64,000 nt of DNA from Candidatus Pacearchaeota archaeon (GCA_018303825.1 JAGVXK010000021.1:32001-96000), one strand, 5' to 3'. Counted from the stretch's first letter, positions 10,905-45,065 are shown. Program-made: numbers and translations. The notes: generated by a model from the sequence alone, not told the origin.

Positions 10905-11027
10905 TTATTTCTTCTTCTTTCTTCCGCCTCTTGCCATTCTAGCCTCGCATACATTTCCTTTACCATCTACATAGTAAAGATAACCTGGCTTTCTTTTGAC
11001 GACGTTCTTAACCAATATTGTTCCCAT
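10905..11027 (-). CDS. 40-aa basic protein missed by the ORF track
   Basis: MGTILVKNVVKRKPGYLYYVDGKGNVCEARMARGGRKKKK, translated by hand; strong SD AGGAGGT just upstream (11034-11040). Confidence 0.8.
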   Translation of the reverse strand: MGTILVKNVVKRKPGYLYYVDGKGNVCEARMARGGRKKKK

Positions 11028-11147
11028 TTTTTAACCTCCTTTTGCTTTATATATCAAACGTATTATGTAAATACTATTCGTATTTAAACCTTTTTATTCT
11101 TCCGACGATAAAATGTCTTCTCTAAATAATGGCACTCAATTTTTAGA

Positions 11148-11477: not shown

Positions 11478-11525
11478 CTTTTCATTTATGAACCTTGCTT
11501 TTCTTATACTTTCTAAATATAATTA

Positions 11526-14500
11526 TCACTTCGAATGAGGTTTATCATGGCTATGAGATTCATGATAGACATGATGCCTCTTTAATTCATGATAATATCT
11601 CATTATTTCATGGTATATTTTATGCTTCTTTTTTTCTTCAAGGGTTTCATAAATCTCCTTTATTTTATGATAAATCAACCTGGCAAGATGCAAATTCTTT
11701 TCTTTAATCGCTTTTTCTCCTTTCTTGATTAGTCTTCTTATCTGCTCCAATTTATCCTTTCTCCTCTTCCACAACCAGAACAATATTAAGTCTAAGATTA
11801 TCAAAAATATGATTAACCACCATAATATTTTGTTGGCAAAAGATATCGTTTCGTTATTAGTACATTGTCTGCAGCTTCCACCGCAATCTATTCCAGTTTC
11901 ATCCCCGTCTAGAATACCATTGTAACAAGATGGACAATAACCCTCTCCTTGCACAAATTGTATGTTTAATCTTCCTGATTTCTTCCACTCTTCAATATTT
12001 ATATTAGTTACCGGAAGTCCGCTCAATCTGTCTATTGCTATCAAGGTTATCTTTCCGCAGACTTCTCTCTGGACAAAATCAATCTTCTGAGTTGACCCGC
12101 AAAGCATAGTATCTGTATAATTAGCTATGCAATTATTTTTATCATAGCATATCCTTTCATTCTGCCCTGATTTCCTTATCTCTCCATTAAATATGTCCTC
12201 TACTAAATTTTCACTAACACAACCGCTCCAGATTCCGCAAACTATCTCTGATGTGCAGTTCAAATTGCAAGATTGGCTCTCTGTTTTTCTCGCATCGCAG
12301 TTATTTCTGCACACTCTTGTCTTATTTCCATTTGTGCATGAAATTGTATCCCATTTGGGACAATTCCATCCTGTTGAAATACATCCTCCACCTCCTCCGC
12401 CTCCACCTCCTCCGCTGCTTACTGGAGCTGCAATTTCAAAGCTGCTGAAAACAGAGTCATTTCTGTTTCCTATTGTGTCATTGCAATATGCCCTTAATGT
12501 ATATGTGTCATTTAAAGCCCCGGTTTTGCTATAATTAAATACCAATCCATTTCCATCAAAACCGCTGGCATTCGCCATTGTCAAATTCGTAAGTCCGCTG
12601 TCTAGGGAGAAGATACAATAACCTCTCTCATTCAGCGTTATATTAACTAGATAACTATTAGTGGCATATACTTCCCCGTTTACAGGACTTCCTATTGATA
12701 CTTGGGGAGGCGTGCCATCAACACTAAACACAATGGATTCTGTTCTGTTCCAGTTTCCAGAAGTATCATTTGCATAAACTCTAAAAGTATAGCTACCATC
12801 TACAATTGAATTATTTGTTGCATTAAATTTCTCTCCAAACAAGACTGATTCGTTTCCAGTCATGCTGATGTTTGTAGCTCCATTATTTAAGCTATATAAA
12901 ACTGAGCCATTTTCATTCAATGTCACATTAAACATTAATCCAGAAGTTACCTCAGCATTATTGTATGTTTTATTCGTTGGATTTATGATTGTAACCAATG
13001 GAGCAATTATATCTGCATTTATTGAAATTGTCCTTGTTTCTGTGCAATTTGCATTTCCAGAAGTATCGGAAGCGCATGCTTGATATGTATAAACACCGTT
13101 ATCCAATCCTGCAGTGCTGTTCTTGCTTTGATTTATATACAAATACCATTGAGTTGAATTGTACTTTTGTAAATTACTCATATACAGTTCACTAATCTCT
13201 CCAGCAGTCAAAGACCTGTTCCATATTCTCAATTCATCTATTGAGCCGTTTAAGCCAAATGAATTATCAAATCCATCCCTAAATAAGTTTAATGCGATTC
13301 CAGAATCGTCCGAAACACTGCCACTTCCAATGTCCTGGGTTGAATAAGCTACTTCATTGCCATTCAAATACAAACGAATTTTGTTGTCAGTATTACTCCA
13401 CATATAAGCTATATGGTTCCAAGTATTATTTGAATAAGTAGTAGTGCTCTGGCTGACAGCCCAACCGCCTAGTGTTGATCTATAAAATCTTGCATATAAA
13501 GTATTATTTGGAGTAAGAAAAATCAGGTAACCGGCGGTGTTGTCTGAATTTCTTTTGACTATAAATGGTCCATTCAAGCTAGAACTCTTAATATATGCCC
13601 AAGCAGATATAGTAATTCCTGTTTTCCCATTAGCATCAATAGCCGAAGAACTAGTTATATTGACGTAATCATTCACCCCATCAAATCGCAATGAGCTTCC
13701 GTACTTTCCAGATACATTATAAATCCCTCCACCGATAATTGTTCCATTATTTGAATATCTGCTTAAATCAACAACTTTAGTATCATTATCTCCCAAACTG
13801 CTTATATTATCAAAATTGTACATCAAGACAAGAGATAAATTATCATATATGTTATAGTTTGTTCCGTTCCAATTAAATGTCAGATTAGCAAGATTCTGCT
13901 CAAAGGTAGAAACGTTAATTGTTATGCTGGTACTTGTAGTTACTGTCCCGTTTGCTGGTGTTGGGGCTGTGAAGTTAATCAATGGGTTTGTTGTATCTGC
14001 ACCGGCATCTAAAACAGAATAATTACTCCAACTGCTAACATTAAATACAATTGTTCCGGCATTCAATGATGTAAAATTCGAGCACGTTGGAACCGTTGTC
14101 TCATCGCATTGACTTATCCCATTAACATAAATCTTTGGATTAACCATTGTTGTCGGTAATCCATAAAGAACAACATTTGCACTTGTATTCAACACTGTAT
14201 TGGTCGAATCAACAAAAGCAGAATTATTTCTTATCGACACATTGCTTCCCAAAATTCCAGAGATAGTTGATATATCTAATGCATTAATCCAACCTATCTG
14301 TCCATTACTGGAATTCATAATTTTCAATTTCATAGTATTAAGATAATTGTTGCTTGTTTCAGTTAAAGCAGTTGAATAATTGAAAAGTAATATTCCGACA
14401 TCGCCAGAAGTTCCTCCAGTTCCCCCGTTAAGATTTACAGTTATATTTGTAACATTAAGCAAGCCATTATTCCAAAGATTTACCATTCCACCTACGCCTC

Positions 14501-17093: not shown

Positions 17094-17169
17094 CTCTTTT
17101 TTATTGATAATCAGTACAAAAAGAGATATTTAAAAGTTGCTAAGTTGATGTTTGGGGGGTTGTTCTACA

Positions 17170-17616
17170 TTATTTCCAGAAGAAATAACTTTTTTTCTTC
17201 TCTATTCTATCCTCAAAATCAGCCAGATTTGCCTGCTTTGCTTCCTTCTTTTCCTTCAGATTAACGAATTTTTCATACATTACTTCTATATTTTTCTCGC
17301 ACACAAAGTCATGCTGCCTAAATCCCCCGCCAAATGTCCTTGGAACATGCATTAACTCATGAATTATAACCTTGTCCTGCTCATTCTTATCCAATCTATC
17401 AAATTTTTCAAGAAATTCAATGGCATAAAATGCCTTTGTTTTCATTGCCTTCTGCATTAACTTTCCAAGAGTATGACATCTTGCTATTGTCCTTCTTGTA
17501 GAAGAGCCAAAACTCCTTATGCATTCTATTCTATTGATATCTATATGACCCATATTTAGCATGGTTATTATCTCATTCATTCTCTCTTTCAAATCTGGCG
17601 CATCTTCGTATTTCAT
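17170..17616 (-). CDS. Predicted zinc metallopeptidase
   Basis: HELMH (HExxH) in VIIHELMHVP...GGGFRQH. Confidence 0.75.
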   Translation of the reverse strand: MKYEDAPDLKERMNEIITMLNMGHIDINRIECIRSFGSSTRRTIARCHTLGKLMQKAMKTKAFYAIEFLEKFDRLDKNEQDKVIIHELMHVPRTFGGGFRQHDFVCEKNIEVMYEKFVNLKEKKEAKQANLADFEDRIEKKKSYFFWK

Positions 17617-17659
17617 TTTATGAACCTCAACTTTCCATGAGCTTTTTTAAAGGTCATCT

Positions 17660-18937
17660 TCATATTTCGCAATGATCTCCTAAATTATATAATCCAGAAA
17701 TCTCAGCTACAGTCAAGCTCCTACTCCATATCTTTACCTCATCTATAACTCCATCAAAATAATGACCTTCTTCGTTTACCTGGGCCGCATAATATCTCCC
17801 GATAATAAATTCCTGGCCACTCGCAGTATTTATGTTAACATTTCCATTTGAAGGAGAGCCGCCATTCACAGCATTGACATAAACATCAAAATCAGTCAAT
17901 CCTATGCCCTTCCTTGTTATGACAACATGATTCCAGGCATTTATAGTCATTTTCCCCAATCCAGAAGTTGCCAATTCAGAACCAGCACAATCAACGCTTA
18001 AATCTATTCGTCCAGTATCGTGAGTATAAACAGACCATCCATTTTCACAAACCCAGCTGCCATATCTTGAACCAGAGATGATTCCATTATATCCTGAAAA
18101 ACTAGTAGGGTAAGCCCAAAAACTAATTGTAAAGTTGTTCTTAGCAAAATCAAACTCATTGCTATCAATTATTGAAACATAATCATTAATTCCATCAAAT
18201 CTCAATGCTGAACCAGTACCAACCTGGCAAGTTTCATAACCTATCCCTCCCTGTAAAGCCCCATCATTATTTCCAACCTGATCAAATGCATTATCATCAA
18301 AATTCCAATAGGAAATAAATGAATTCTTATATTCACAATAACTAGTTGTTGACCCTGGATTAATGCAACTGTCTTGCGTGTTGAGATTGCCATCCGTGCA
18401 ATTAGAATCAACTGTGCAAATTATACTTGGTGGAATAGGTGGGCTGGGCGGACTAATGGTCCCCTCATCTCCTCTTACTGTATAAATATATTCATTCTTT
18501 CCTTGCAATTCAAGCCCATCTTTATTATACACAAATGGAACAACACTTACTCTTCTAAGCAATCCAAGACCCGAACTAGAATAATCTATATTCTTTATTG
18601 TAGTTTGCAATTCATTAAGTGATTCGTTATATCTAAATGGCACTTTCTTCCCATTTATATCTTCTAGAACTATAACAAAGGCAGCCATATTTCCTGCTCC
18701 TTGTTCTCTCTTTATAGCTAGTGTTAAATTTCCCTGTGTTTCATTTAACCTAACAGATTCTCTTGGTATTGTCAATGAAGTTGTAAATATACTTGAATCT
18801 ATCTGGCTTCCTGCCTTGTATAATGTATTTCTAAGAAAAGCCCATATCAATATAATTGCGGCCAATACAATCAATATAATTAAGATAACTGTAATTATAT
18901 CGCTCAAACCTTTTCTAGCAACACCTCTTTTAGCCAT
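17660..18937 (-). CDS. Type IV pilin-like protein with Cys-rich linker and LamG domain
   Basis: Class III signal peptide RKG/LSDIITVILIILIVLAAIILIW; LamG motifs FDGINDYV, WNHVV, FDGVIDEVKIW; start moved to MAKRG at 18937. Confidence 0.85.
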   Translation of the reverse strand: MAKRGVARKGLSDIITVILIILIVLAAIILIWAFLRNTLYKAGSQIDSSIFTTSLTIPRESVRLNETQGNLTLAIKREQGAGNMAAFVIVLEDINGKKVPFRYNESLNELQTTIKNIDYSSSGLGLLRRVSVVPFVYNKDGLELQGKNEYIYTVRGDEGTISPPSPPIPPSIICTVDSNCTDGNLNTQDSCINPGSTTSYCEYKNSFISYWNFDDNAFDQVGNNDGALQGGIGYETCQVGTGSALRFDGINDYVSIIDSNEFDFAKNNFTISFWAYPTSFSGYNGIISGSRYGSWVCENGWSVYTHDTGRIDLSVDCAGSELATSGLGKMTINAWNHVVITRKGIGLTDFDVYVNAVNGGSPSNGNVNINTASGQEFIIGRYYAAQVNEEGHYFDGVIDEVKIWSRSLTVAEISGLYNLGDHCEI

Positions 18938-18971
18938 TAAGAATAAAGAATAAATAGGTTTAAAATACTTT

Positions 18972-21779: not shown

Positions 21780-22976
21780 CTATTTAGTCATAATCTCAAA
21801 GCCATCCATATGGTTTAATTTATAATCTTTCCCAACCGCCTTTTTAGTTCTTACATCTACTGCTTTCACAAAATTCTTCCCAATATCAGAATGTAATCTA
21901 TAGGCAAAGTCAAGGGCAGTGCTGCCTTTCTTCATTAAATAACAATCTGGAAGAATATTTCCTTTTGAATCAGCCAATTTATCTCCCGCTGGAAATATAG
22001 CGATGTATCCTAGAACTTCAAGGACTGTTTTATTCAAAACTTGCTGCACCCCAGTAGTCCCAAACTCGTTCACGACTTCTTTTATCCTATCAAGAGCCTG
22101 CTTTTGCTTTCCGGAAAGCTCTTTTTTCTCAATAAATAAGCTTTCTCCTGCAACATATTCAATTAATCCTGCCTTGTCTGCCTCCCTTAATGCTAATTCC
22201 CCGTCAGCAAAGCAAGGAACCATAGGATAATCAAACTCTTTTTTTACTTTTTCATAATTTGCAGGTCCATTTGGAGTATCAACTTTATTTGCGGCAATTA
22301 CCATTGGTTTTGTATATCTTCTTAATTCTCTTGCGAAATTAAATACTTGTTCATCAGTCCAGGAAGCAGGCTTTTCATAATTTAATTGCATTTTTAGCAT
22401 TAAATGCTTAACATCATCTACAGTTACTTTCAATCCAGAAAACTGCTTTGCAACAGATTCAGCAAAATTAGAGTGCTGCATTTCTAATGTTCTTGCAAAA
22501 GTCTTCCAAACTTTTCTTAAAATCCCACTATACCATAAATCCAATTCCTTTTCAATTATTCTTATGTCATTTCCAGGATAATAGTCTTTTGTTGGCTTTC
22601 CTACCCCGTCAAATTCTCCTGACATGTCAACAATATGAATAAATGCATCTGCGGCGCTTAAATCAGCAAGGAATTCATTACCCAATCCTTTTCCCTCTGA
22701 AGCACCTTCAACAAGTCCAGCAACGTCCATTAAATCAAAGGGGACAAATCTCCATATTTTATCCCCTGCTTTTCTAACATAGCCCTCTCTCGGATTGCTT
22801 ATCTTCCCAAATTCAGCCGCAAGGTCAGGAATTTTGATATATCCCATCCCATGATTAGGTTTTATTGTCGCGAAGGGATAGCTCGCAATAAGAACATCCA
22901 TGAGCGTTGCTGCCTTAAAGAAAGTTGATTTGCCTGCGTTGGGCCTTCCTAGAACACCAATTAACATATATCGCAA
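21780..22976 (-). CDS. ychF: Redox-regulated ATPase / translation-associated GTPase YchF (archaeal type)
   Basis: GRPNAGKSTFF, YPFATIKPN, DVAGLV, ANKVD, C-terminal TGS (GSTALDFAYRLHSDIG). Confidence 0.93.
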   Translation of the reverse strand: MRYMLIGVLGRPNAGKSTFFKAATLMDVLIASYPFATIKPNHGMGYIKIPDLAAEFGKISNPREGYVRKAGDKIWRFVPFDLMDVAGLVEGASEGKGLGNEFLADLSAADAFIHIVDMSGEFDGVGKPTKDYYPGNDIRIIEKELDLWYSGILRKVWKTFARTLEMQHSNFAESVAKQFSGLKVTVDDVKHLMLKMQLNYEKPASWTDEQVFNFARELRRYTKPMVIAANKVDTPNGPANYEKVKKEFDYPMVPCFADGELALREADKAGLIEYVAGESLFIEKKELSGKQKQALDRIKEVVNEFGTTGVQQVLNKTVLEVLGYIAIFPAGDKLADSKGNILPDCYLMKKGSTALDFAYRLHSDIGKNFVKAVDVRTKKAVGKDYKLNHMDGFEIMTK

Positions 22977-22997: not shown

Positions 22998-23567
22998 TTA
23001 TTTGTTTTCAAGTTTTTCACCAATATTCTTATATATCTCTTCTATCTGCTTCACTGACCCTGCTAAATCTCCCTCATTAACAATTACAAAATGAGCCATT
23101 TCAATAAGCTTCCCAGTTTGTTGACCCATAGGGTCATTTACATCAAAATTATCCCTCTCATCCATTTTTAGAAAATCTTCCCATGTTTTTGGGTCAGATG
23201 ATTTGTTTCTTCTCAAAATCCTCTCAAATCTAGCTTTTTGTGGAGCATCAACTCCAATCAAAACAAAATCCTTTACCGCCTCTTTGAGAAAGACGGCTTC
23301 CCCTGTATTCCTTAAACTATCTATGATATAGTTTTTTCCAGGCTCCATCTTATTCAAAAACATCTTCATCAAAACACCAACCCCTTGCTCCTTCCTCAAC
23401 CTATCAGCCAAATCCTGCTGATTCTTTCTAGTTATTTCCATTCCTTTTTTTTGTAGCTCTTCATTTATTAATTTAAAAGTTTCAAAATAGATAAACCCCT
23501 TATCCCTCAAAAATTGGGTAAGCGTCTCTTTCCCAGCGCCAACTCTTCCACACATACCAATAATCAT
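22998..23567 (-). CDS. P-loop nucleoside/nucleotide kinase (dephospho-CoA/adenylate-kinase-like)
   Basis: N-terminal GRVGAGKET Walker A, IDSLRN, DAPQKARFERI. Confidence 0.8.
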   Translation of the reverse strand: MIIGMCGRVGAGKETLTQFLRDKGFIYFETFKLINEELQKKGMEITRKNQQDLADRLRKEQGVGVLMKMFLNKMEPGKNYIIDSLRNTGEAVFLKEAVKDFVLIGVDAPQKARFERILRRNKSSDPKTWEDFLKMDERDNFDVNDPMGQQTGKLIEMAHFVIVNEGDLAGSVKQIEEIYKNIGEKLENK

Positions 23568-23672
23568 AAAACTAAATTAGAAACTTGCTATAAATACCTA
23601 AGCTATCATTTTATGATAGCAAATTTATCTATCTTTAACAAGATTTATTAAAAAACAAATCCCGCTAAAAAG

Positions 23673-24494
23673 ATGAATTTACAAGAGTTAGTAAAAATTT
23701 CCCGAATAGAAATTCTTCCCTTTAAGTCTGTTATCCAAAAGTTAAACATCATTCCGGAAAGAACCAGCATTCAAATAGCAACCCACAATTTATCAAAAAC
23801 CCTTGATTTTTTGTCAATGGTTCACGGAAGATTCAACCTCAACTTTATTCCTCATCTTCCAGCGAGATTATTTAACAATGAATACCAATTATTGCAAACA
23901 TTAGACTCATTAGCGGAAATGCAGGTTAGAGATATATTTGTCATAGGCGGAGATGAAAAATCTCCAAAAGGTCCATATTCAAATTCATTTAATATATTTG
24001 AAAGAATGCACAAACTTGGATACACCTCCTTGTTTAAAGAAATAGGAACAGGAATTTATCCAAGCGGACACCCATTTCTTTCAGATAAAGTAACATTTGA
24101 GGCATTAAAATTAAAACATCAGTTTGTAACATATCTAGAATGCAACCTTGACTTCAATCCAAGGAATATCTCTAATTATATCTCAAAAATAAGAAAAGAA
24201 GGAATTGACAAGCCAGTTATTGTTTCTGCTCTAGGAGCAGTTGACAAGAAAAATCTTTTTCCATTATTAAAAGAATTCAGCCCAAGAAAGACAATTCGTT
24301 ATCTGGCTCTCCACCCCCTCCTTTTACTGAACCTTACAAGAGGAAGATATACTCCAGATAAATTCTTAGAATCCCTGGATGATAACCTTGCTAAGGACAA
24401 TAACGTTGAACAAATCAGAGGACTTATCTTCTCAACCTTCAACAGCTTAGAAAGCCATTACAAGTGGATGCACAAATATTTAAATACAAACTGA
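23673..24494 (+). CDS. Methylenetetrahydrofolate reductase (MetF)-like flavoprotein
   Basis: FIPHLPAR, IFVIGGD, GIYPSGHP, KLKHQF, divergent TQ-like LECNLDF. Confidence 0.7.
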   Translation: MNLQELVKISRIEILPFKSVIQKLNIIPERTSIQIATHNLSKTLDFLSMVHGRFNLNFIPHLPARLFNNEYQLLQTLDSLAEMQVRDIFVIGGDEKSPKGPYSNSFNIFERMHKLGYTSLFKEIGTGIYPSGHPFLSDKVTFEALKLKHQFVTYLECNLDFNPRNISNYISKIRKEGIDKPVIVSALGAVDKKNLFPLLKEFSPRKTIRYLALHPLLLLNLTRGRYTPDKFLESLDDNLAKDNNVEQIRGLIFSTFNSLESHYKWMHKYLNTN

Positions 24495-24507
24495 ACTCAT
24501 AAGAAAG

Positions 24508-24684
24508 ATGATAAAAAATAATTATGAGATTTTAGAAAAAGAATATGTTGTTCCTATCCTAACTCTAGGCACTGGCGATGAAACAGGACATTTTAGAATA
24601 ATTAAGCCAGAGGATGATCTTGAAGGGGAAGCAAGAGAAGCCTTTTTGCATCTTCAAAGAATGTTTCCTCCAAGAGATAAGTAA
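24508..24684 (+). CDS. 58-aa hypothetical protein missed by the ORF track
   Basis: MIKNNYEILEKEYVVPILTLGTGDETGHFRIIKPEDDLEGEAREAFLHLQRMFPPRDK; starts 14 bp after the metF-like stop. Confidence 0.6.
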   Translation: MIKNNYEILEKEYVVPILTLGTGDETGHFRIIKPEDDLEGEAREAFLHLQRMFPPRDK

Positions 24685-24710
24685 ACTAATTTCATCTTTA
24701 AAAACATAAA

Positions 24711-24725
24711 ACATGATCCCGCTGG
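24711..24725. repeat. att-like direct repeat (distal copy of the tRNA-Ile 3' end)
   Basis: ACATGATCCCGCTGG, identical to 33340-33354. Confidence 0.85.
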
Positions 24726-24865
24726 TCAGCCATACATTCTGTCTACTTCGAGTATCAGTCAATTTGATATTTTTTCACTTGTATATTACTTTAGCATCGC
24801 TAGTATTTATATTTTTTGGATATAATTGATACTAGGTCCACACCGACAGCCATCAAAATTGTTTA

Positions 24866-27479
24866 TCAGAAATGTTCCAGTTTGAAAAAATTCTTCTTTT
24901 CGTTTAATTTTTTTAAGATATTAAATATAATAACTATAATAATTGCAGAGACTATTCCAAACAGCCAGCCAGCCACTCCTATTGGAACGGTTCCAAACGC
25001 TTTGTTTAAAGGAGTATAAATGATAGCTATTGTTGCTAGGATAGAGACTATTGAGGCATAAAGTAAGTATTTATTTACTTTTAATGATTCAAATGACACT
25101 TTGTGCCTAAAAGACATAAAGCTATACGCATTAGCTATTTCTAAACAAATCAATGATAGTAAGGCTGTTGTTCTTGCAAACTCAGTAGTTTGATGAAGGA
25201 CATTAAAACTTACAAAGAAAACAACTAAGGTCAGTATCGCCATAGATATTCCTGCAATTCCTAGCCAAATTATAAGTGATTTGTTCAATATTTCTTTTTT
25301 CTTTCTTGGTTTTTCTTCCATAATATCTAAAGAAGAAGGAGTTAGTGCAAGGGTTATCGCAGGGAGGTCATCTGTAACAAGATTCATGAATAATATTTGA
25401 AGTGCGAGAAGTAATGGAATCTGCCAACCAAGGAATGGGGCAAGCAACACTCCAAAAAACAATATCATAAGCTCGGCGTAATTGCATGATAATTGATAAC
25501 TAATAAATTTTCTAATGTTCTTGAATATAGTTCTTCCTTCTCTTATTGCCATGACTATAGTTGCAAAATTATCATCTTTTAATGTTAAATCTGCGACTTC
25601 TCTTGAGACATCTGTTCCGTTTTTACCCATTGCCACTCCAATGTGGGCTTCTTTAAGAGCTGGAGCGTCATTAACCCCATCTCCAGTCATTGTAACAATT
25701 TCCCCATTTAATTTTAATGCTTTAACAATCATTAATTTATGTTCGGGTCTTACTCTTGCAAAAACAACTATCTCATTAACTATCTTTGAAAGTTCAATTT
25801 CAGTCATTTTATCCAAATCTTTTCCTTCTATTACTCTACCACGTAATCCTATCTTTTTAGAGATGGCCAAAGCGGTTTCCTTATTATCTCCAGTAATCAT
25901 CTTTACACTTATTCCAGCACGTATGCATAAAGATATAGACTCCTTGACTTCCTCTCTTGGAGGATCTTCCATTCCAACTAGACCTAAAAAGATTAGGTCC
26001 TCTTCAAAATGGTCTTTGTTAAATGAGCTTACTTTTTTATATGCAATTGCCAGTGTTCTTAATGAGTCAGAAGCAAGGTCATTACTTATATTGAGAATAT
26101 TTTCTCTTCCTTTTCCAGTCAATGTAAACTCTCCTCCTTCTTTTTGTATCTTTTTACACTTTGTTAATAATATCTCTGGAGCTCCCTTAGAAAACACATA
26201 TTTTTCTTTGTTAAGCTCGCATAAAACAGACATCATCTTCCTTTTAGAGTCAAAAGGCATTTCTTCTATTATTTTAAAGTTTAAATCCTCTCTGTGTATA
26301 TTTGCTTTTGCAGCCATTATTAATAAGGATGCTTCTGTAGGAGTTCCGTTTATGTTGTAAAGATTATCTTCTCCAGTCCTTTCTATCCTTGCATCATTGC
26401 AAATAATTGAGCTTTTTATTAAAAGAGATAAAACATTATCTTTTTGAACATTTATCTGCTTATTACCTATTAAGAAATCTCCTTTTCCTTCAAAACCTGT
26501 CCCAGTTATATTTATTAAATGATTGTCTGCGAAAACTTTGCTTACAGTCATCTCTCCCTTAGTTATTGTTCCCGTTTTATCCGAACATATAACTGTTGTT
26601 TCTCCAAGAGTCTCAATTATTGACATTCTATTCACAATTGCATTTTTCTGAGCCATGCTATATACTCCTTTAGCAAGGGCAGTAATCAAGACTACTGGAA
26701 ATCCTTCTGGGAAAGCAGAAACGGCTAGTGCAATCATCAATATTAAAGCATCAATAAAGAGATTTTCAGACGGAGGGCTTATGAAAATCATAAATAATCC
26801 TGTAAGTACGGAAAAGACAATAGCTACGATAGCCATATATTTGGAAATTTTATTAACTTTGTTTTGAAGTGGAAGTTCTTTTTCAGCAGTTGAAATCATA
26901 CTTGCAATGCTTCCAAATTTTGTATTCATTTTTTCCATTTACTACAAATGTCCCCATGAAAAGAGTATTTTTTTCAGAATAGTCTTTTTCACTCTTCGTA
27001 GCTATTTTTTCTACTTCCTTTGATTCCCCCGTAAGTATAGACTCATTAACTAAAAGTTCTTTTTCTTCAATAACTATGCAATCAGCAGGAACTTTTTCAC
27101 CGTTTCTTAATAAAATAATATCTCCGGGAACTATATTCTTGGAAAGAATTTCTTTTTCTTTTCCATCTCTTATCACAATCGAAATAGGCACAAGCATATT
27201 CTTTAGAGACTTAATTGCTTTTTCGGCTTTGTATTCTTGGATAAATCCTGTAAAAATAAGAACAAGAATAACTGCTAATATGACGTAAGCAGTTATTGAT
27301 TTCCCAACAATAAAAGATAATGCTGCCGCAATAATAAGCAGATAAATGATATAATTCTTCTTTATTTGTCTAAACAGTATTTTTATTGGAGATATTACTA
27401 AGTTTTCCCTGATCTCGTTCAACCCATATTGTTCAAGTCTTTTCTCTGCTTCTTTTTCAGTTAATCCTCTTTTTTCCAT
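24866..27479 (-). pseudogene. Cation-transporting P-type ATPase (Ca2+/type II-like), split by a frameshift near 26930
   Basis: N-part has GLNE, LTGES; C-part has PEGF, DKTGT, KGAPE, MITGD, TGDGVNDAPAL; the junction NGK|MNTKFG lacks about 9 codons and changes frame. Confidence 0.85.
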
Positions 27480-27604
27480 TTCAGCTTTAACACAGAGAAG
27501 CTTTATATAATTAATCAAAAGATATCGCAAGAATATGTGATAGGTTGGGTATAAGATTGTTTGACCAACTAAAAATTTAAATAACCTAAGAACTCAGATA
27601 AGTT

Positions 27605-28723
27605 ATGCCTTTCAAAAGAATAATAGAGAGGCTAAAAGATGCTTTAGTTGATGTAGAAAATTTATTTTTGAAAAAAGAAAGTAAAGTGTCCTTAGTCATT
27701 CCAGCGTTTAATGAAGAGAAAACTGTAGCGCGAGTTATTGGTGAAGCAAGAAAAGTCAAGGGACTTTCCGAAATAATCTTAGTTGATGATGGTTCAGTAG
27801 ATAAAACGCCCGAAATAGCCGAGAAATTAGAAGTTAATGTAATCAGGCACCACTCAAATCTCGGAAAGGGAGAAGCATTAAGAACGGGAATATCTGCCGC
27901 TAAAGGAGATATAATCGTCTTTATAGATGCAGATTGGAAGAATGTAACTCCTGAAAAAATTAAATCTCTCTTCTTACCAATATTAAAAAATAAAGCAGAT
28001 TTCACAAAAGCATCTTTCTCATTAAAAAGAGGGAGGGTCACTGAGGTGGCTATAAAACCAATAATGAAAATTTTATATCCCTCATCTAAATTTAAACAAC
28101 CCATTAGTGGGCAGTTTGCTGGGAAAAAGGATTTTTTAGAAAAGCTGAAGATAGAGCCTAGGTGGGGCATTGATATCTCTATCCTATTGGATGCCATAGA
28201 ACATGGGCAAAGAATTTCCGAGGTAGATGTTGGGGAAGTTGTTCATAAGGGCAGGACAATGGAGGAAAAGGCGGAAATGTCTGAGCAAGTATTGGAAACC
28301 ATACTGAAAAAATCAGGACTTTTATGCTCAAAGCATAAATTAATAATTTTCTCAGATAAAACCCTATTTCAGTATGATAGACTTTCCGAGACTTCTTTAA
28401 AGATGATAGATATACTGAGGAGAAAAAGATTAAGATTATTTTTATTTACAACTAAAGATGTAAGGCCTGAATATAGGAGCAAATTTGATAAAATTATAAA
28501 AATAGATTTGAATCCAGAACATATCGCACTTGATGCAAAACAACAAGCAAAAAAGACGAATGTGAGATTAAGTGAGGTTATACTTGTAGCTAACATGCAG
28601 GGATTTGAGGATTTGGCCCGCTCGGTTGACAAATCTTTTTGTTTCGAAAAATCACCACAAAAATTGAAAAATGAGAGTAAGATAATTAAAACCCTACCAG
28701 AGCTTTTCATATATCTTGAATAA
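27605..28723 (+). CDS. GT2 glycosyltransferase, GpgS/MpgS-like, with degenerate C-terminal HAD-like domain
   Basis: VIPAFNEE, DDGS, GKGEAL, FIDAD, GRVTE, QPISGQFAG, WGIDISILLD; C-terminal LIIFSDKTL / LFLFTT / EVILVAN. Confidence 0.8.
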   Translation: MPFKRIIERLKDALVDVENLFLKKESKVSLVIPAFNEEKTVARVIGEARKVKGLSEIILVDDGSVDKTPEIAEKLEVNVIRHHSNLGKGEALRTGISAAKGDIIVFIDADWKNVTPEKIKSLFLPILKNKADFTKASFSLKRGRVTEVAIKPIMKILYPSSKFKQPISGQFAGKKDFLEKLKIEPRWGIDISILLDAIEHGQRISEVDVGEVVHKGRTMEEKAEMSEQVLETILKKSGLLCSKHKLIIFSDKTLFQYDRLSETSLKMIDILRRKRLRLFLFTTKDVRPEYRSKFDKIIKIDLNPEHIALDAKQQAKKTNVRLSEVILVANMQGFEDLARSVDKSFCFEKSPQKLKNESKIIKTLPELFIYLE

Positions 28724-28725
28724 AA

Positions 28726-30393
28726 ATGAATATACTAATTATAACTTGGTTATTTCCTCCGAGTAATGGGGGAGTAGAATCCTATACATATAATTTAGCA
28801 AAGAATCTGTCAAAAGAGCACAAGATTACCATACTGACATGCCTGGGACATTATCCTACAGAGAAAAAAGAGAAGTTTAAGATATATAGGATGAAAGAGA
28901 TGTATCCTTACGGAAGAAAAAAAGAAGATTATGGAAAGATATATAAAAAAGTTTTAGAGATATTGAAAAAAGAAGATATAGACCTTGTGCACAGTCATAA
29001 TTTAGTTTGCTTGGAGACAAGCTTCACAAAGGCAATAGTAAATGCTGTAAAAAGCAAAGATTTACCTTTAGTAGACCATTGCCATGATGCGAGGTTTAAA
29101 TATTTAAACAAAGAATTAAAATATGAAAAATTCGATAGAATAATCGCAGTAAGTAAATTTGTAAAAAAGAGACTAATTAACCTCGGTTTTAATAAAAATA
29201 TTCTCGAGGTAATATATAATTCTTCAGATTCTAAAGTTTTTAATTCAGGAAAATATAGTTCTTTGCAGGCAAAAAAGTTCTTTAGAATACCATTAAATAA
29301 GAAAGTAATCATATTCCCCTCGAGGGCTATCAGGACTACTACAGGAGAATTTGGAGAGCAGAAAAACTTCATTACGCTCTTGAATTCCACAAAATTAATT
29401 AAGAAAGATTTTGGTGATGACTTTGTTGTTATTTTCCCTGTCAAAGTGGGAATGAAAAGAAAGAATGATGCTATCAAAAAAACACTTTATTCGTTAAGAG
29501 AAAAGTTAAAGAAAGACGGGTTGATTGAGAACGTGATTCCTATAACTAAAAAAGTAGGATACGAAAATATGCCTTTGCTTTACAAAACGGCAAACATAAT
29601 GTGCACCCCCTCGACAGAAGAAGCTTTTGGCTTAGTATTTTTAGAGGCCTCACTTATGCAACTGCCAGTTATAGGTGCAAAAAGTGGTGCAACAAAGGAA
29701 ATAGTCATCAACGGAAAAACTGGTTTTTTGGTTCCTCCAAAAAATAAGAAGAGGCTGGCAAAGATAATCGTTAGATTGCTCAAAAGCAAAGAGTTTAGGG
29801 ACAAAATAGGAAAAGCAGGAAGAAAATATGTAAAAGATAAATTCGATTCTAATAAAATGTTAACTGAGGTAGAAAGAACATATAAAAAAGTTTTGGAGAA
29901 CAGAAAAGTTATTTATTTAGTAAGACATCCAGAAACAAAAAATAACAGGGAAAACAGGCTAACTGGCTGGGAACATTCCCAATATACCTCCGAAGGAAAT
30001 AAGCAATTTGCCAAAATAAGTAATTATTTTAAAGATTATCAAGGACAAATTTTTTCTAGTGATTTAAAAAGAACTAGCAAACTCGCAGTTTCAATTGCAA
30101 AGAAAAATGGCATAAAACCGATTATTACACCTTTGCTTCGTGAGAGAAATTTCAAAGAAACTTTGCCGCATCATACTTATGAGACCGAGTCCTCTGTTGC
30201 CAAAAGAACTAAGAAATTTTATGATAAATATCATCCACGCAAGGCAATTATATTCACTCACGGCGCTATCCTGAGGCACATAGCGAGACATTATCTAATT
30301 ACTAATAGAAATGAATTTGAAGAGCCAAGAAATGTTATATTCAAGATAGAAACAAATAAAAACGCTGCTAAACTAAAAAAGATAAGGTTATAA
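28726..30393 (+). CDS. GT4 glycosyltransferase fused to a histidine phosphatase (PGM-like) domain
   Basis: FPPSNGGVE, EAFGLVFLEA (EX7E), KEIVING; then YLVRHPET, SDLKRT, LRER, FTHGAIL. Confidence 0.88.
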   Translation: MNILIITWLFPPSNGGVESYTYNLAKNLSKEHKITILTCLGHYPTEKKEKFKIYRMKEMYPYGRKKEDYGKIYKKVLEILKKEDIDLVHSHNLVCLETSFTKAIVNAVKSKDLPLVDHCHDARFKYLNKELKYEKFDRIIAVSKFVKKRLINLGFNKNILEVIYNSSDSKVFNSGKYSSLQAKKFFRIPLNKKVIIFPSRAIRTTTGEFGEQKNFITLLNSTKLIKKDFGDDFVVIFPVKVGMKRKNDAIKKTLYSLREKLKKDGLIENVIPITKKVGYENMPLLYKTANIMCTPSTEEAFGLVFLEASLMQLPVIGAKSGATKEIVINGKTGFLVPPKNKKRLAKIIVRLLKSKEFRDKIGKAGRKYVKDKFDSNKMLTEVERTYKKVLENRKVIYLVRHPETKNNRENRLTGWEHSQYTSEGNKQFAKISNYFKDYQGQIFSSDLKRTSKLAVSIAKKNGIKPIITPLLRERNFKETLPHHTYETESSVAKRTKKFYDKYHPRKAIIFTHGAILRHIARHYLITNRNEFEEPRNVIFKIETNKNAAKLKKIRL

Positions 30394-30398
30394 AAAAG

Positions 30399-31028
30399 AT
30401 GAATCCTATAGCAAGTATTTTAGGAGATACAATATTCAATGATTGGTTAAAGGTTGCATTCATTATCATAATTGGAGTACTCCTCGCATTTGGGCTAAAA
30501 TTTTTATTTAACAAACTTGCAAAAAAGATTATATATCCCTGGATCAGAAGAACTTCACCAGAGAATTATAAGCAGACGGTTTCGGGCACAATGTTACTTT
30601 CTGCAATAATATATTGGTTTGTCTTAATAATTTTTATTTTAATTGCACTCTCTGTTTTGAACATAGATATTTTAGCACAAATCACTTCAAAGATTATCAA
30701 CTTTGTACCTAAGATTGCGATAGCATTTGGCGTTATCTTAATTGGACTTTTAATTACGAGTGTAATCTCTCGAAAAATAAAAGACCAAAATTTTAGGACT
30801 AGTCTACTGTTGGCAAGGATATTCGAGATAATATTTATCTCAGCTACAATTCTTTCTGCACTAGAAGTTATTAATATTAAATTGACCCCGTTTGAAGAAT
30901 TATTCAGAGTCCTTCTTTATACTATTGGATTAACTGTTGCAATCGCTCTAGGCATATCCCTTGGTTTCGCCTTGAAACCAGAGATAGTGAGAATGGTAAA
31001 AGGCATAAGGCGGAACAGCCATAAATAA
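30399..31028 (+). CDS. Multi-pass membrane protein, mechanosensitive-channel-associated conserved TM helix type
   Basis: INFVPKIAIAFGVILIG and IALGISLGFALK resemble TM_helix/CmpX-like proteins; lacks an MscS cytoplasmic cage. Confidence 0.6.
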   Translation: MNPIASILGDTIFNDWLKVAFIIIIGVLLAFGLKFLFNKLAKKIIYPWIRRTSPENYKQTVSGTMLLSAIIYWFVLIIFILIALSVLNIDILAQITSKIINFVPKIAIAFGVILIGLLITSVISRKIKDQNFRTSLLLARIFEIIFISATILSALEVINIKLTPFEELFRVLLYTIGLTVAIALGISLGFALKPEIVRMVKGIRRNSHK

Positions 31029-31066
31029 ACAGCTCAAAGAGTCTTGAAAATCTTTCCCAGATTTAA

Positions 31067-31252
31067 TTAAACTAATCCCTTTTTGCAATGCTGACAAAAC
31101 TTTCTCCACTTAGAATTAGATTTACCACAATTTGTGCATACTATCTTTGGTATTTTTACCTCGATTTCTTTTTTCATATTTACTTTTTTCATCATTTCTT
31201 TATATTTTCTTCTGAACTTCACAATTTTTAAACCTTTACCAAAAACAATCAC
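31067..31252 (-). CDS. Small Zn-ribbon protein
   Basis: C-terminal CTNCG...FCQHC. Confidence 0.55.
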   Translation of the reverse strand: MIVFGKGLKIVKFRRKYKEMMKKVNMKKEIEVKIPKIVCTNCGKSNSKWRKFCQHCKKGLV

Positions 31253-31351
31253 TTACTTTTTCCTGAGTTTAATCATTTTTCAAAGCATTATCAAAAATAT
31301 TAAAAGTATTTTCTAAAGAAACACTCTATATTTACGGAGGGGTAAAAAGAC

Positions 31352-31909
31352 CTAAAACGGGTAATAATAGCTATGATGGACCTTCTTCTTAGGAATGATG
31401 ATCTGTAACTTTTCAGGCTTATTTCTTACATACCACCTTAATTTTTTTAATACGGTCTTTCTAGTATAGGTCTTACCAAACTTCCTGTATTTCTTTAATA
31501 AGTTGCGATTTGTCACAACAAAGAACCAATCTTCTCCGAAATGGTCATTACATATCTTAACTTTGTTCAAAAATTTGACTTTATCCTTCAAAACTTTTCC
31601 TATTTCTACTTCAATCCCTATTTTCTTGTTTCTAAATTGAAAAATAACATCTGGAAGAGTGGTTTTGAATATCCAAACCTTAAAATGCTTTGATAAATAT
31701 CTAGCAATATCCATTACAAGAAAGAAATGTTGTAATCCTTCATTACGTTCCGGTTTTAATAGGTAATATCCTCTTCTTCCCGTTATACTTTTCCCATAAA
31801 AATACTTATATTCTCTATCTTGTAAATGTTCGAACTGCCAATCACTTTTGATATATCTAACATCGTAAAATCCTTCTCTCCTATTTTTGAATAATTTATC
31901 TTCTTTCAT
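31352..31909 (-). CDS. PD-(D/E)xK nuclease-like protein, possibly a fragment of a larger element gene
   Basis: PDVIF...IGIEVEIG motif; immediately downstream of the integrase. Confidence 0.55.
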   Translation of the reverse strand: MKEDKLFKNRREGFYDVRYIKSDWQFEHLQDREYKYFYGKSITGRRGYYLLKPERNEGLQHFFLVMDIARYLSKHFKVWIFKTTLPDVIFQFRNKKIGIEVEIGKVLKDKVKFLNKVKICNDHFGEDWFFVVTNRNLLKKYRKFGKTYTRKTVLKKLRWYVRNKPEKLQIIIPKKKVHHSYYYPF

Positions 31910-31936
31910 AAAAAATCCTGAAGGTTTCTAGCTAGG

Positions 31937-33190
31937 CTAAAGCCTTTCCGCTACGAAACCTTCTTTCGATTTGCTTTGTTTATTAATGATAAATGATAGT
32001 TCGCTCAAATCTTTACCTATCTGCGTTATTCCATATTTTTTAAGCAATATCTCTAATTGTTCAACTAGCTCATAAATTGTTTTTATCTGTTTTTTAGTTT
32101 CGTTCATTTCATCCTTTAGTAATTCATTTTCTTTTTCTGATTTTGTTAATCTTTTCTCAATTTCTGTTTTAGTAACATCAATTAAAATATCTTCTTCTGA
32201 AATAGTATCCCGCATTCCTAACAATTCAGAATAATAGTGAATTTTATCTGAATCTCTCCAACCAAATCTATATTTTAATGCTGATTCTGATTTATATCTA
32301 GGCAACCAATAACAGCAAGAGTTATGTCTAAAATCATACATTGTTAAATCAGAGTATTTCTGCCCTGCTTGGCTTTTCTCTTCTCCCAGTAATCTTTTAG
32401 CTAATCTCTTAAGATACTTGTTAGCAGAAGCAGAATTTATATCAAATAATTGATCATTATCTTTTAGATTCTTCGCTTTCACATATTCTTTTATTATAGA
32501 TGGGCAAAGCAATAGCTTAATTCTTCTTCCAAATGATCCTCCTTTGACTGTTTCTTCTCTTATATTCAATTCTTTGAAGTCATTAAAAAAATCAGAAAAT
32601 CTTATATTGACTAACTCAGTAGGAGCCCTTATTCCCGTATCAAACAAAAACCAAATCAATACCTTATAGTCATATCTTGCATTATCTGCTAATTTTTTTA
32701 CTTGCTCTTCTGTTAGATATACCCAATCAGGCTTTTCTTCCTTAGTATCTAGATCTATGGTTATATCTGGGATTTCAATACTTTTCTTTTTGCTTATTCT
32801 TTGATACCAATGCCAAAAAGCCTTGAACATCTTAACAAAGTCACGAACGCATATATATTTCTCTCCATTAGGCTTTGTAAGCTTGCCATTTTCCATATTA
32901 GCAAACAAAAGATGAATTTGTTCTTCATTAATGTCAGTTATCTTATCTATGCTATAAATCTCTTTTATCCTTTTCATAATGGAAATTATCCTATCTTTAG
33001 AAGAAATTAGGCTAACAAAGCTTCTAGCACCCTTTCTAGTGCCTTTAGTGACGTTTATTCCTATTTCCATATCATTAAGATACCGCCATAAGATCTCAAT
33101 ATTGGCTTTGCTAACCCCTTCTATACCTTGTTTGGATTTCTCTCTCCAAGCCAAATACTTCTCTTTGTTGTTGTATGGGTCTATTCTCAT
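31937..33190 (-). CDS. Tyrosine recombinase / integrase
   Basis: FDTGIRAPTEL (catalytic R), YDFRHNS, RFGW, HYYS (catalytic Y); 153 bp from the tRNA 3' end. Confidence 0.92.
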   Translation of the reverse strand: MRIDPYNNKEKYLAWREKSKQGIEGVSKANIEILWRYLNDMEIGINVTKGTRKGARSFVSLISSKDRIISIMKRIKEIYSIDKITDINEEQIHLLFANMENGKLTKPNGEKYICVRDFVKMFKAFWHWYQRISKKKSIEIPDITIDLDTKEEKPDWVYLTEEQVKKLADNARYDYKVLIWFLFDTGIRAPTELVNIRFSDFFNDFKELNIREETVKGGSFGRRIKLLLCPSIIKEYVKAKNLKDNDQLFDINSASANKYLKRLAKRLLGEEKSQAGQKYSDLTMYDFRHNSCCYWLPRYKSESALKYRFGWRDSDKIHYYSELLGMRDTISEEDILIDVTKTEIEKRLTKSEKENELLKDEMNETKKQIKTIYELVEQLEILLKKYGITQIGKDLSELSFIINKQSKSKEGFVAERL

Positions 33191-33237
33191 TTTGTCTTAT
33201 GGTGTTTTTTGTATATAAATTCACGAGTGAATAAAAA

Positions 33238-33291
33238 TGTACATTTAAATGTACATTTTTTTGTACAAATAATTGTACAAAATTTTGTACA
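33238..33291. repeat. Five TGTACA palindromes at exact 12-bp period
   Basis: TGTACA starts at 33238, 33250, 33262, 33274, 33286, separated by A/T-only spacers. Confidence 0.92.
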
Positions 33292-33342
33292 ATTTTAAGC
33301 CAATATCAACAACTGAACCTCAATTTGGACAAGAAGTATACA

Positions 33343-33470
33343 TGATCCCGCTGGGATTCGAACCCAGGACCCCCGCCTCACTTAGACATTTTTATTCTCT
33401 ATGCGAATTATTGCCCTAACGGGCAATTATCCTATAAGAGCGGTGCTCTAACCAGCTGAGCTACGGGATC
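33343..33470 (-). tRNA. tRNA-Ile (anticodon UAU) with 54-nt intron at 37/38 (33379-33432)
   Basis: Acceptor GATCCCG/CGGGATC, D arm GCTC/GAGC, anticodon loop CT-TAT-A|A, T loop TTCGAAT; BHB with CTTA/TAAG central helix and GATA/TGTC outer helix. Confidence 0.95.
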
Positions 33471-33792: not shown

Positions 33793-34731
33793 TCAAGCTC
33801 TGCAAAGAGCTAAGGCATAAGCCCCATCAGGAGAGGGAAACAATTTCATATCAGAAAAGTAAAGCTTCATGAAATTCTTGAACAATTCCCTTCCATATTT
33901 GTATGAAACACTGACAAGTATCTGATCTCCTGTTGAAAAGTATATGCTCTTGTCCTGGAATGTAATCTTTTTATCCCTTAACAAAGTATAATATAATTCT
34001 ACCCTTGACCTTCTGAATCTTACATTGAATTCAAGGTCCCTTCTGTCAAATCCAACTTGCGATAATATCATGAAAAGCCAGTCATCCACTTCTTTTGTGT
34101 TATAGGAGGCAATTATATCCTTTTCTTGCCTATTGTCTAATCCATTTCCTATGATAAGAAAATCTCCCTTGCTCATTGAGCTTCTTATCTCATACAATAA
34201 TTCATTAATTTCAAAGTTGCCTAGTGTGTTCCCCAACAGAAGGAAAACATTATCCTTATATTGACTTCCCCTGAGCAAGTTAGCCACATTTTCCAAATTT
34301 TCAAAATCAGAAATGTTCCATTGCAGTTCAACAACTTCTCCAATATTCAATTGCTTCATTCTATTCATAGCCTTTTCTACCATATATCCTGAAATGTCAA
34401 TAGGGCAATACCTCAATTTTACCTTTCCCTTCAGATATCTTATGAATATTTCCGCTTTCTTTCCATCCCCGCATCCTAAATCTATGATATTTATCGGCTT
34501 ATTTCCAACTTTCTTCAAAATATCATTAATATTTGCCTTTATTAAATTAATTTCCTTGGCAATAATTTCTTCCTGGTATGATTCTGACTTTTCCAAGTCA
34601 AGAAAACCCTGTGCCTGCTCCGGGCTTAAATACCATAATTTAGAATCTGCTATGTTCCACACCCTGGTCTTCCCTTCCAAAGAGTAGCCTCTTTTAATCA
34701 GTTCTTTGAAAATTAAATCGTTTACTTGCAT
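33793..34731 (-). CDS. SAM-dependent methyltransferase, histidine-specific (EgtD-like) family
   Basis: DSKLWY, IIDLGCGDGKK, CPIDIS, LLLGNTLGNF, VSVSYKY. Confidence 0.8.
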   Translation of the reverse strand: MQVNDLIFKELIKRGYSLEGKTRVWNIADSKLWYLSPEQAQGFLDLEKSESYQEEIIAKEINLIKANINDILKKVGNKPINIIDLGCGDGKKAEIFIRYLKGKVKLRYCPIDISGYMVEKAMNRMKQLNIGEVVELQWNISDFENLENVANLLRGSQYKDNVFLLLGNTLGNFEINELLYEIRSSMSKGDFLIIGNGLDNRQEKDIIASYNTKEVDDWLFMILSQVGFDRRDLEFNVRFRRSRVELYYTLLRDKKITFQDKSIYFSTGDQILVSVSYKYGRELFKNFMKLYFSDMKLFPSPDGAYALALCRA

Positions 34732-44981: not shown

Positions 44982-45065
44982 GGGTCCATATTTAAATGGC
45001 ATAATTTTCGGCTCCAGAATTTTTGGAGCAACCGAAAGTCGAGGGTTCGATTCCCTCTGGGCCCA
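44982..45065 (+). tRNA. tRNA-Trp (anticodon CCA) with 13-nt intron (45018-45030)
   Basis: Acceptor GGGTCCA/TGGGCCC, anticodon stem TTCGG/CCGAA, CTCC/GGAG BHB central helix, T arm GAGGG-TTCGATT-CCCTC. Confidence 0.9.

Follow-up and report, generated by a model that had tools for sequence, protein, structure and literature searches.

A probable integrase-encoding genomic island at the 3' end of a tRNA-Ile(UAU) gene in a Pacearchaeota-type DPANN archaeon

Does a 15-bp sequence shared by the 3' end of a tRNA gene and a site 8.6 kb away mark the two ends of an integrated element, or is it a coincidence within a variable part of the chromosome? The question is raised by a stretch of 64,000 nucleotides from Candidatus Pacearchaeota archaeon (GCA_018303825.1, JAGVXK010000021.1:32001-96000; hereafter the window, to which positions given without a contig name refer), for which an earlier note, made from the sequence alone, had proposed an island anchored at tRNA-Ile(UAU) and delimited by a 15-bp attachment (att) repeat. 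Our analysis leads to the same reading: the interval 24711-33354 is most probably a genomic island inserted at the 3' end of the tRNA-Ile(UAU) gene of a Pacearchaeota-type DPANN archaeon by its own tyrosine integrase, a reading to which we assign a probability of about 0.85. The features of the locus are collected in Table 1.

Table 1. Features of the island and its borders, in window coordinates (aa, amino acids; ORF, open reading frame).
Feature	Position	Strand	Description
Host tRNA-Ile(UAU), integration target	33343-33470	minus	54-nt intron in anticodon loop; 3' end towards the island
attL core, tRNA-proximal 15-bp copy	33340-33354	+	final 12 tRNA nt and 3 nt of trailer
Inner arm at attL	33313-33336	minus	CTTCTTGTCCAAATTGAGGTTCAG; candidate integrase core-binding site
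TGTACA array, candidate arm-type or regulator sites	33238-33291		between int start and attL; five palindromes, exact 12-bp period
Probable int promoter	33212-33232	minus	TATA-like TTTATATA, after the palindrome ATTCAC-NN-GTGAAT; from sequence reading
Tyrosine integrase (int), 417 aa, intact	31937-33190	minus	same strand as tRNA; 150 bp downstream of tRNA
Probable PD-(D/E)XK nuclease, 185 aa	31352-31909	minus	conserved two-gene module with int
Membrane protein, 209 aa	30399-31028	+	resembles N-terminal transmembrane part of mechanosensitive channel (weak)
GT4 glycosyltransferase-histidine phosphatase fusion, 555 aa	28726-30393	+	Pfam Glycos_transf_1, Glyco_transf_4, His_Phos_1
GT2-type glycosyltransferase, 372 aa	27605-28723	+	Pfam GT2; best named match glucosyl-3-phosphoglycerate synthase
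Type-II P-type cation ATPase, pseudogene	24866-27530	minus	overlapping ORFs 26883-27530 and 24866-26938; Pfam, NCBIfam
Inner arm at attR	24735-24758	+	CATTCTGTCTACTTCGAGTATCAG; inverted imperfect copy of attL arm
attR core, distal 15-bp copy	24711-24725	+	T-rich host trailer after core on tRNA-sense strand
Orphan 273-aa ORF, outside attR	23673-24494	+	within 23655-24710
Candidate degenerate third att copy	23655-23666	correct strand	ACA-AATCCCGCT; in 105-bp gap between 273-aa and 189-aa genes

The repeat, its tRNA target and the site in relatives

The repeat, ACATGATCCCGCTGG on the + strand, is present as exact copies at the two ends of the island and nowhere else in the genome; no third copy was found in the window at up to two mismatches or in the 805,733-bp, 23-contig genome at up to one mismatch. 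On the tRNA-sense strand it reads CCAG-CGGGATC-A-TGT, that is, the last four bases of the T stem, the 7-nt 3' strand of the acceptor stem, the discriminator and three trailer bases, which is the anatomy that the earlier note had described. Default ARAGORN found no tRNA at the site; the gene was recovered as tRNA-Ile by Rfam (RF00005, 57.3 bits) together with ARAGORN when introns were allowed (option -i; anticodon tat, intron (39,54)), in agreement with the target first named, and the fold of its RNA is a cloverleaf (z=-3.35) whose anticodon loop contains the intron. Comparison of the 3' ends of the 37 tRNAs of the genome with 30 kb of downstream sequence gave longest exact matches of typically 8-11 nt, and for tRNA-Ile(UAU) itself a match of 15 nt was reached in 0 of 300 shuffles (mean 8.7), bearing out the claim that the repeat lies beyond chance expectation.

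Relatives of the genome are named Ca. Pacearchaeota/Woesearchaeota, which agrees with the DPANN host that had been suggested. The orthologous site was compared in five relatives. Their gene order is a SAM-methyltransferase (ortholog of 33793-34731), an intron-bearing tRNA-Ile(UAU) with its intron at the same position, and a YchF-related GTPase (ortholog of 21780-22976). The island genes are absent between tRNA and YchF, the gap being about 55 bp in two of the relatives; the comparison of the locus recommended in the earlier note thus gave an island missing from the orthologous site, and with a 15-mer unique to the two island ends the outcome that the note had named as refuting was not observed. 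Relatives with the most similar YchF carry, between tRNA and YchF, a homolog of the 189-aa kinase-like gene at 22998-23567 (minus strand), identifying this gene as host DNA, just as the 15-mer boundary predicts. The 189-aa gene encodes a P-loop kinase-like protein and is tandemly duplicated in one relative (G195); all of its named matches, among them dNMP kinase and the N-terminal portion of a model for an anti-phage dCTP deaminase, fall below cut-off.

The integrase, its family and the attachment sites

The 417-aa ORF beside the tRNA matches Pfam PF00589 (30.3 bits against a cut-off of 27.1) and the PHROG integrase family phrog_1 (E=1.8e-14), confirming the tyrosine integrase that had been reported there. 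It is a single ORF, full length relative to its homologs, with the core lying 150 bp upstream of its start, and it retains all residues invariant in an 11-member alignment, among them R188, K216, Y285-x-x-R288, W311 and Y319/Y320; judged by position, R188, K216, R288, W311 and Y319/Y320 would be those expected of the catalytic set. The protein is a divergent recombinase, whose best sequence match in the PDB is archaeal XerA (5hxy, E=0.005). A tblastn search of 50,697 deposited phage and archaeal-virus records gave no match at E<=1e-3, plasmids gave one weak match (25% identity), and no family member was found on IMG/VR contigs even with the family alignment as query. The genome encodes no paralog of this integrase elsewhere (tblastn). 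It does encode two other tyrosine recombinases of about 280 aa, presumably canonical Xer-like enzymes (C4:19377-19847 and C5:17891-18376, L189 and L190; PF00589 at 154-164 bits), so the 417-aa protein is not the housekeeping Xer; two Xer-like copies are themselves unexpected for a 0.8-Mb archaeal genome.

Homologs of the integrase (E<=1e-10) occur in 96 of the 301 sampled genomes of the order, assigned to Candidatus Pacearchaeota, Woesearchaeota and Nanoarchaeota; a genome often has more than one copy, copies are frequently located at contig ends, and many fragments accompany them. The distribution of the family is patchy and resembles that of mobile elements. Its closest member, with 68% identity, comes from a Pacearchaeota genome from Rifle groundwater. 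The 29 best loci include 17 at which int immediately follows a tRNA gene on its own strand; the tRNAs targeted are those for Asp, Ser, Arg, Gly, Glu and Ala. Our literature search found no paper on this integrase family or on islands in Pacearchaeota or Woesearchaeota, and the island is a member of a large, so far undescribed family of elements in DPANN archaea.

Sister elements were searched for repeats within 20 kb of downstream sequence. Four of them end in an exact copy of the tRNA 3' end whose register matches that of the window repeat, each reached in 0 of 300 shuffles: a 12-bp repeat of tRNA-Gly spanning 9.2 kb (G137), 14-bp repeats of tRNA-Asp spanning 3.3 kb (G249) and 13.1 kb (G268), and a 14-bp repeat of tRNA-Glu spanning 8.7 kb (G001). 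Repeats in two further elements are 10-mers. In a larger element (L171, G093:C1:277200-297100, 564-18966), a 12-bp repeat of tRNA-Asp bounds 18.4 kb (0 of 200 shuffles) containing int, an N4/N6 DNA methylase, a type IV secretion system (T4SS)-pilin-like protein, a VirB3-VirB4 fusion that ends in a nuclease-like domain, and all components of a type I restriction-modification system (HsdM/S/R); no coupling protein or relaxase was identified in this element, the sole sister that was annotated.

Two further patterns were seen at tRNA 3' ends. At one sister locus (L051, G121:C3), the 447 bp between tRNA-Asp and int hold five tandem repeats of about 92 bp, each with a degenerate tRNA-Asp 3' end (..GGGCGT..) and, after it, an arm-like TGGCACC motif, and another (G092, L058) has two such units; from its sequence, the arrangement looks like an array of att remnants left by repeated integration at one tRNA. 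The genome of the window itself has three more tRNA 3'-end direct repeats that bound intervals devoid of an integrase: 16 bp of tRNA-Tyr around 1.7 kb (C3:7966-9661, L185), 13 bp of tRNA-Asp around 3.1 kb (C5:31807-34930, L186) and 13 bp of tRNA-Leu around 6.5 kb (C13:62257-68815, L187). One of the three contains a single 489-aa ORF lacking a Pfam match and has arms resembling the family motif, another contains GT9, SLOG and PRT-like genes, and another contains 15 small co-directional ORFs including MarR and a lycopene-cyclase domain. These intervals may be integrase-less islets or relics.

Beyond the core, the attachment sites share a second component. The first ~30 nt inside attL are alike across elements that reside in different tRNAs (consensus ~CTTTTTGTCTAATTTTATGGGACT), which indicates that this arm is carried by the element rather than by the tRNA. 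An inverted copy of the motif is found in the last ~35 nt inside attR of six elements, namely that of the window and those of G133, G224, G137, G268 and G001. With a position weight matrix (PWM) built without the window, the attL arm scores 12.6 bits at offset 3 (p ~5e-4) and the attR arm 5.2 bits (p ~0.015), both p values being position-conditioned, that is, given the expected strand and offset; the two arms also align with each other as an inverted repeat (P ~0.013). In the circular form, two inverted arms would flank the tRNA-identical core, a layout expected of recombinase core-binding sites, and the arms are candidates for sites of this kind.

These results bear on the first question, whether the 15-mer is a chance match in a native variable region whose integrase serves some other role, such as Xer-like dimer resolution. 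The shortness of the core, just 15 bp, would allow this, and so would the fact that no excision product has been seen (see below); it would, however, have to be reconciled with a match length reached in none of the 300 shuffles, the same register in at least five sister elements, the conserved arms, two separate canonical Xer-like recombinases in the genome, and an integrase family that is patchy and linked to tRNAs. We consider coincidence extremely improbable.

Under the favoured reading of an integrase-driven insertion, the 3' end of tRNA-Ile(UAU) would have served as the chromosomal attB and recombined with an element-borne attP, the island integrase being the presumed catalyst of strand exchange. 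The shared core would comprise 15 bp, 12 nt of tRNA and 3 nt of trailer, and in attP it would be flanked by two inverted motifs of ~24 nt that are probably bound by the integrase, their function as arms being deduced from this layout. Integration would rebuild an intact tRNA at attL from bases supplied by the element and displace the host's own copy to attR. The process leaves int uninterrupted; we infer a role for the TGTACA array and a remaining capacity to excise.

The array between int and attL gives four overlapping matches where shuffles lead one to expect 0, and it is not conserved in the att-int spacers of the sister elements. The array, and likewise the palindrome that abuts the TATA-like box of the predicted int promoter, could plausibly be regulator or arm-type sites. 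Two other resemblances to att components were dismissed as chance: an inverted core copy with three mismatches at 23859, which lies inside the 273-aa ORF and has no T-arm context, and a 14-mer of the attL arm with the 8-mer ATCCCGCT at 55091-55128, which lies inside a seryl-tRNA synthetase gene.

The outer boundary and present-day mobility

Several observations weigh against the favoured reading. No relative of the same genus was present among the species representatives, and the nearest orthologs are 65-78% identical in protein. The tRNA is opposite in strand to YchF in most relatives and on the same strand in the window, so that an extra inversion or a lineage-specific orientation must be assumed. 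The GC profile, one of the checks named in the earlier note, does separate the island from its flanks, but weakly (0.318 against 0.344-0.357). A blind PWM scan of the AT-rich window ranks the attL arm only fourth, within the shuffled maxima and hence not significant; we therefore claim only position-conditioned support for the arms. The orphan 273-aa ORF, for which no homolog was found in 120 family genomes, lies outside the repeat, and the 15-mer may accordingly not bound all of the foreign DNA. Finally, neither product of excision was detected: no attB or attP joint was among the listed unitig joints of four groundwater and soil runs, unitigs being prone to drop rare variants, and the predicted attB 37-mer and attP 36-mer had 0 exact matches in JGI metagenome contigs, as did the attP 36-mer in IMG/VR.

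The orientation of the tRNA varies within the family: covariance-model matches place it in G342 and G002 as in the window. In G342, which has the same acceptor stem, the tRNA ends 10 bp before the YchF start and a methyltransferase-like gene lies upstream, so that on its sequence this locus is the window layout minus the island.

The orphan gene raises the possibility that the locus is a tandem composite, in which the 8.6-kb element is tRNA-proximal and a 1.05-kb remnant of an older element, holding the 273-aa gene, is distal, with an outer boundary at ~23655. In such an accretion, for which the evidence is suggestive, the older element would have been cut down to one gene, and entry of the present element into the rebuilt tRNA would then have displaced it away from the tRNA. 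Apart from the lack of homologs, two observations are in its favour: the 189-aa gene directly adjoins the tRNA in close relatives, and the 105-bp gap between the two genes contains a degenerate core copy on the correct strand (gapped score 8.5, P ~0.007). This third copy is, however, short, contains a gap, was noticed post hoc and has no visible arm motif next to it, and the orphan could be a native gene specific to the lineage. We regard the composite as a real possibility, somewhat short of an even chance.

Whether the island, once inserted, can still move is a separate matter. Its DNA occurs in groundwater and soil metagenome runs, and unitigs of four runs cross the left junction with 0 mismatches and extend 17 nt past the right core, the unitig depth of the island equalling that of the flanks. 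The excised circle and the empty site that the earlier note had proposed to look for were thus not seen among the listed unitig joints or in JGI contigs, nor the circle in IMG/VR; both the unitigs and the exact-match scans are blind to rare forms. The insertion could accordingly be an immobile relic, kept or decaying as ordinary chromosome. This would fit the missing junctions in every collection and run, the island depth at chromosomal level, the 26-bp frameshifting deletion in the cargo ATPase, the island DNA that is also present in a ~97% identical sister strain, and a genome that lacks a VirB4-like transfer ATPase. Against a relic stand core copies that are still identical at 15 of 15 positions, a full-length integrase with every family-invariant residue and two recognisable inner arms; moreover, the loss of rare variants from unitigs makes the missing attB and attP weak evidence. 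An immobile relic is therefore conceivable, although on balance we doubt it, and the identical cores, the intact int and the recognisable arms leave excision a possibility.

The companion gene, the cargo and known systems

Besides int, the 185-aa gene immediately downstream is the only one that recurs between elements. Domain scans assigned it to no family. Its homologs, present in 49 of the 301 genomes, take two forms: in many elements, a stand-alone ORF (165-400 aa) that immediately follows int, and, in about 20 genomes, the C-terminal ~150 residues of proteins of 767-1030 aa encoded 5-21 kb from int on the same contig. All five of the large proteins that were scanned have a PrgI(VirB3)-CagE/TrbE/VirB4 architecture with a TraG-type P-loop and, on these domain matches, are conjugation-type ATPases. 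Invariant in the shared domain are E57, H61, P-D87 and E100-x-E102, followed by a hydrophobic strand. An AlphaFold (AF2) model of the 185-aa protein (predicted local distance difference test, pLDDT, 85.7; predicted template-modelling score, pTM, 0.80) has its best structural matches exclusively among PD-(D/E)XK nucleases (Ecl18kI, Hjc, Can2, XPF/Mus81, Bax1 and NucS) at middling scores (Z 5-6.6, Foldseek E>=1.3e-3), and CoiA_nuc weakly matches the VirB4-fused form. The model suggests that the protein is a probable PD-(D/E)XK nuclease.

This gene qualifies the claim that the interval has no capsid or conjugation genes. Scans of the island ORFs gave no Pfam or PHROG matches to capsid, portal or terminase and no complete conjugation gene (Pfam, NCBIfam and PHROG), as had been stated; the claim overlooked that the 185-aa gene is homologous to the C-terminus of VirB4-like ATPases. 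When a full VirB3-VirB4 protein was used as query against the genome, residues 849-963 alone found a match, namely the 185-aa-type domain, and no VirB4 ATPase was detected, so the island is incapable of self-transfer. Elements resembling integrative and conjugative elements (ICEs) may be its relatives, the island being a reduced or mobilisable form.

More specifically, the island could be a deletion derivative of a larger ICE-like element that has lost its VirB3-VirB4/pilin module and kept int, the nuclease-domain gene and the cargo. The occurrence of the same domain at the end of the large VirB3-VirB4-like proteins would agree with this, as would the 18.4-kb G093 element, in which int, a pilin-like gene and VirB4 lie within one pair of att sites. 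Stand-alone versions of similar length (165-207 aa), however, sit directly downstream of int in at least seven other elements, and their identity with the window copy (41-46%) is higher than that of the fused forms (30-36% in alignment A2; 32-43% in a wider search); together, their similarity and length fit a separate bona fide gene rather than a random truncation. We therefore judge such a derivation unlikely. Also improbable, and offered as speculation, is a scheme in which int and the PD-(D/E)XK nuclease form the minimal two-gene mobility module of the DPANN island family: full-size ICE-like members would have their VirB3-VirB4 fused to the same nuclease domain, the nuclease would process the DNA in place of a relaxase in T4SS-like transfer, and small islands would use their int and nuclease for excision and depend on full-size elements for movement in trans. 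If this were true, the int-nuclease module and transfer in trans would allow stress-adaptation cassettes to be exchanged rapidly among ultra-small, cell-attached archaea.

The remaining genes are cargo, for which domain matches uphold the ion-transport and sugar-phosphate functions first proposed, with the caveat that the ATPase is broken. The break is a 26-bp deletion at 26930: runs X7/X8 contain a strain of ~97% identity with 26 additional nt there, and inserting 26 nt behind 26930 yields one uninterrupted ORF of 896 aa. The 209-aa membrane protein matches Pfam MS_channel_1st_1 (E=7.5e-4) and NCBIfam msc (25.5 bits), both below cut-off. For the 372-aa GT2 enzyme, the NCBIfam model NF010496 (GpgS) scores 163.9 bits (E=4e-48), which is below the curated equivalog cut-off of 262, yet by far the best named match; that the enzyme works like GpgS is a lead from this similarity. 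The GT4-phosphatase fusion has no ortholog among 150 family genomes and about four fused homologs (36-51% identity) in a large protein collection. The nearest of these, at 51% identity, is encoded on an unrelated metagenome contig (L182, JGI 3300014204 contig, 5076-9653) that carries a full-length MscS of 410 aa, a 163-aa ORF, a GT2 of 374 aa and a fusion of 550 aa, adjoined by pyruvate kinase; the same cassette on an unrelated contig indicates that the MscS, GT2 and fusion genes move as a unit.

The pathways for glucosylglycerate and mannosylglucosylglycerate comprise GpgS and GpgP as well as MggA/MggB, and mycobacterial GpgP is an enzyme of the histidine-phosphatase family. The island resembles them in that its GpgS-like GT-A enzyme precedes another glycosyltransferase and a phosphatase; it differs in that the GpgS match is below the curated cut-off and that the GT4-phosphatase fusion is rare. 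By analogy, our best guess for a GpgS-like enzyme, a second glycosyltransferase and a phosphatase beside a mechanosensitive channel is the synthesis of a compatible solute of the glycosyl-glycerate type. The cargo as a whole reads as an osmotic or ionic-stress set, consisting of a putative pathway for a glycosyl-glycerate-type solute, part of a channel and a cation pump that is now broken.

Among characterised systems, haloarchaeal SNJ2 integrates through a 14-bp core at the 3' end of tRNA-Met (PMC5861418). The two are alike in a short core that corresponds to the 3'-distal part of a tRNA (14 bp in SNJ2, 15 bp here, 10-14 bp in the sister elements), an int that is intact once integrated, small accessory genes associated with int, and an integrase family spread across many mobile elements of one archaeal lineage. 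They differ in that the window integrase has no BLAST-level match among the 50,697 deposited phage and archaeal-virus records (of which SNJ2 itself may not be one), in the host (DPANN here, Halobacteria there), in the companion (a probable PD-(D/E)XK nuclease here, a coiled-coil/MarR pair there) and in the absence of virion genes from the window element, whose integration and possible excision are deduced from DNA sequence. A 2021 review of archaeal tyrosine recombinases puts the identity in the att sites of pNOB8, SSV and Methanococcales at 40-60 bp and says nothing of DPANN lineages (PMC8371274). With the 'type II' elements exemplified by pNOB8 (She et al. 2002, as reviewed in PMC8371274), the island shares an attP outside int, flanking direct repeats, a rebuilt tRNA and an int beside the tRNA, in contrast to their 40-60 bp of identity having 10-15 bp with conserved inverted arms. 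The 'type I' suicidal integrases of SSV are likewise archaeal tyrosine recombinases aimed at tRNA genes, but their attP lies inside int, which is split by integration; int is whole here, and the element is thus not of the SSV type. ICEs and integrative and mobilizable elements (IMEs) with an MPF-FATA-type VirB4, as in archaeal conjugative plasmids (PMC12102498), are comparable to the att-bounded sister islands with a PrgI/VirB3-VirB4 fusion and a T4SS-pilin-like gene; the window element and its genome, in contrast, lack the VirB4 ATPase domain, and the C-terminal nuclease-like domain is a separate gene. By gene content the element is neither an ICE nor a provirus. It is a classical tRNA-targeting integrative element with a type II (pNOB8/lambda) layout and a core as short as that of SNJ2, found in hosts that have been little explored.

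The tiny genomes of DPANN archaea are mostly viewed from the side of gene loss, and to our knowledge their mobile elements other than viruses have barely been described. The locus represents a cleanly delimited gene gain by site-specific integration in a Pacearchaeota genome, and the family to which it belongs, found in about one third of the sampled genomes of the order, combines compact att sites (a 10-15 bp tRNA core plus conserved inverted arms) with variable cargo: an osmolyte cassette here, type I restriction-modification and T4SS-like modules elsewhere. Furthermore, it provides concrete substrates for in vitro tests of a DPANN integrase and a candidate integrating vector for organisms that lack genetic tools.

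Elsewhere in the window, Rfam detects a second tRNA at 44982-45065 on the + strand (49.5 bits), which default ARAGORN misses; with introns allowed, ARAGORN reports in this region an implausible tRNA-Glu with a 2,497-nt intron that ends there.

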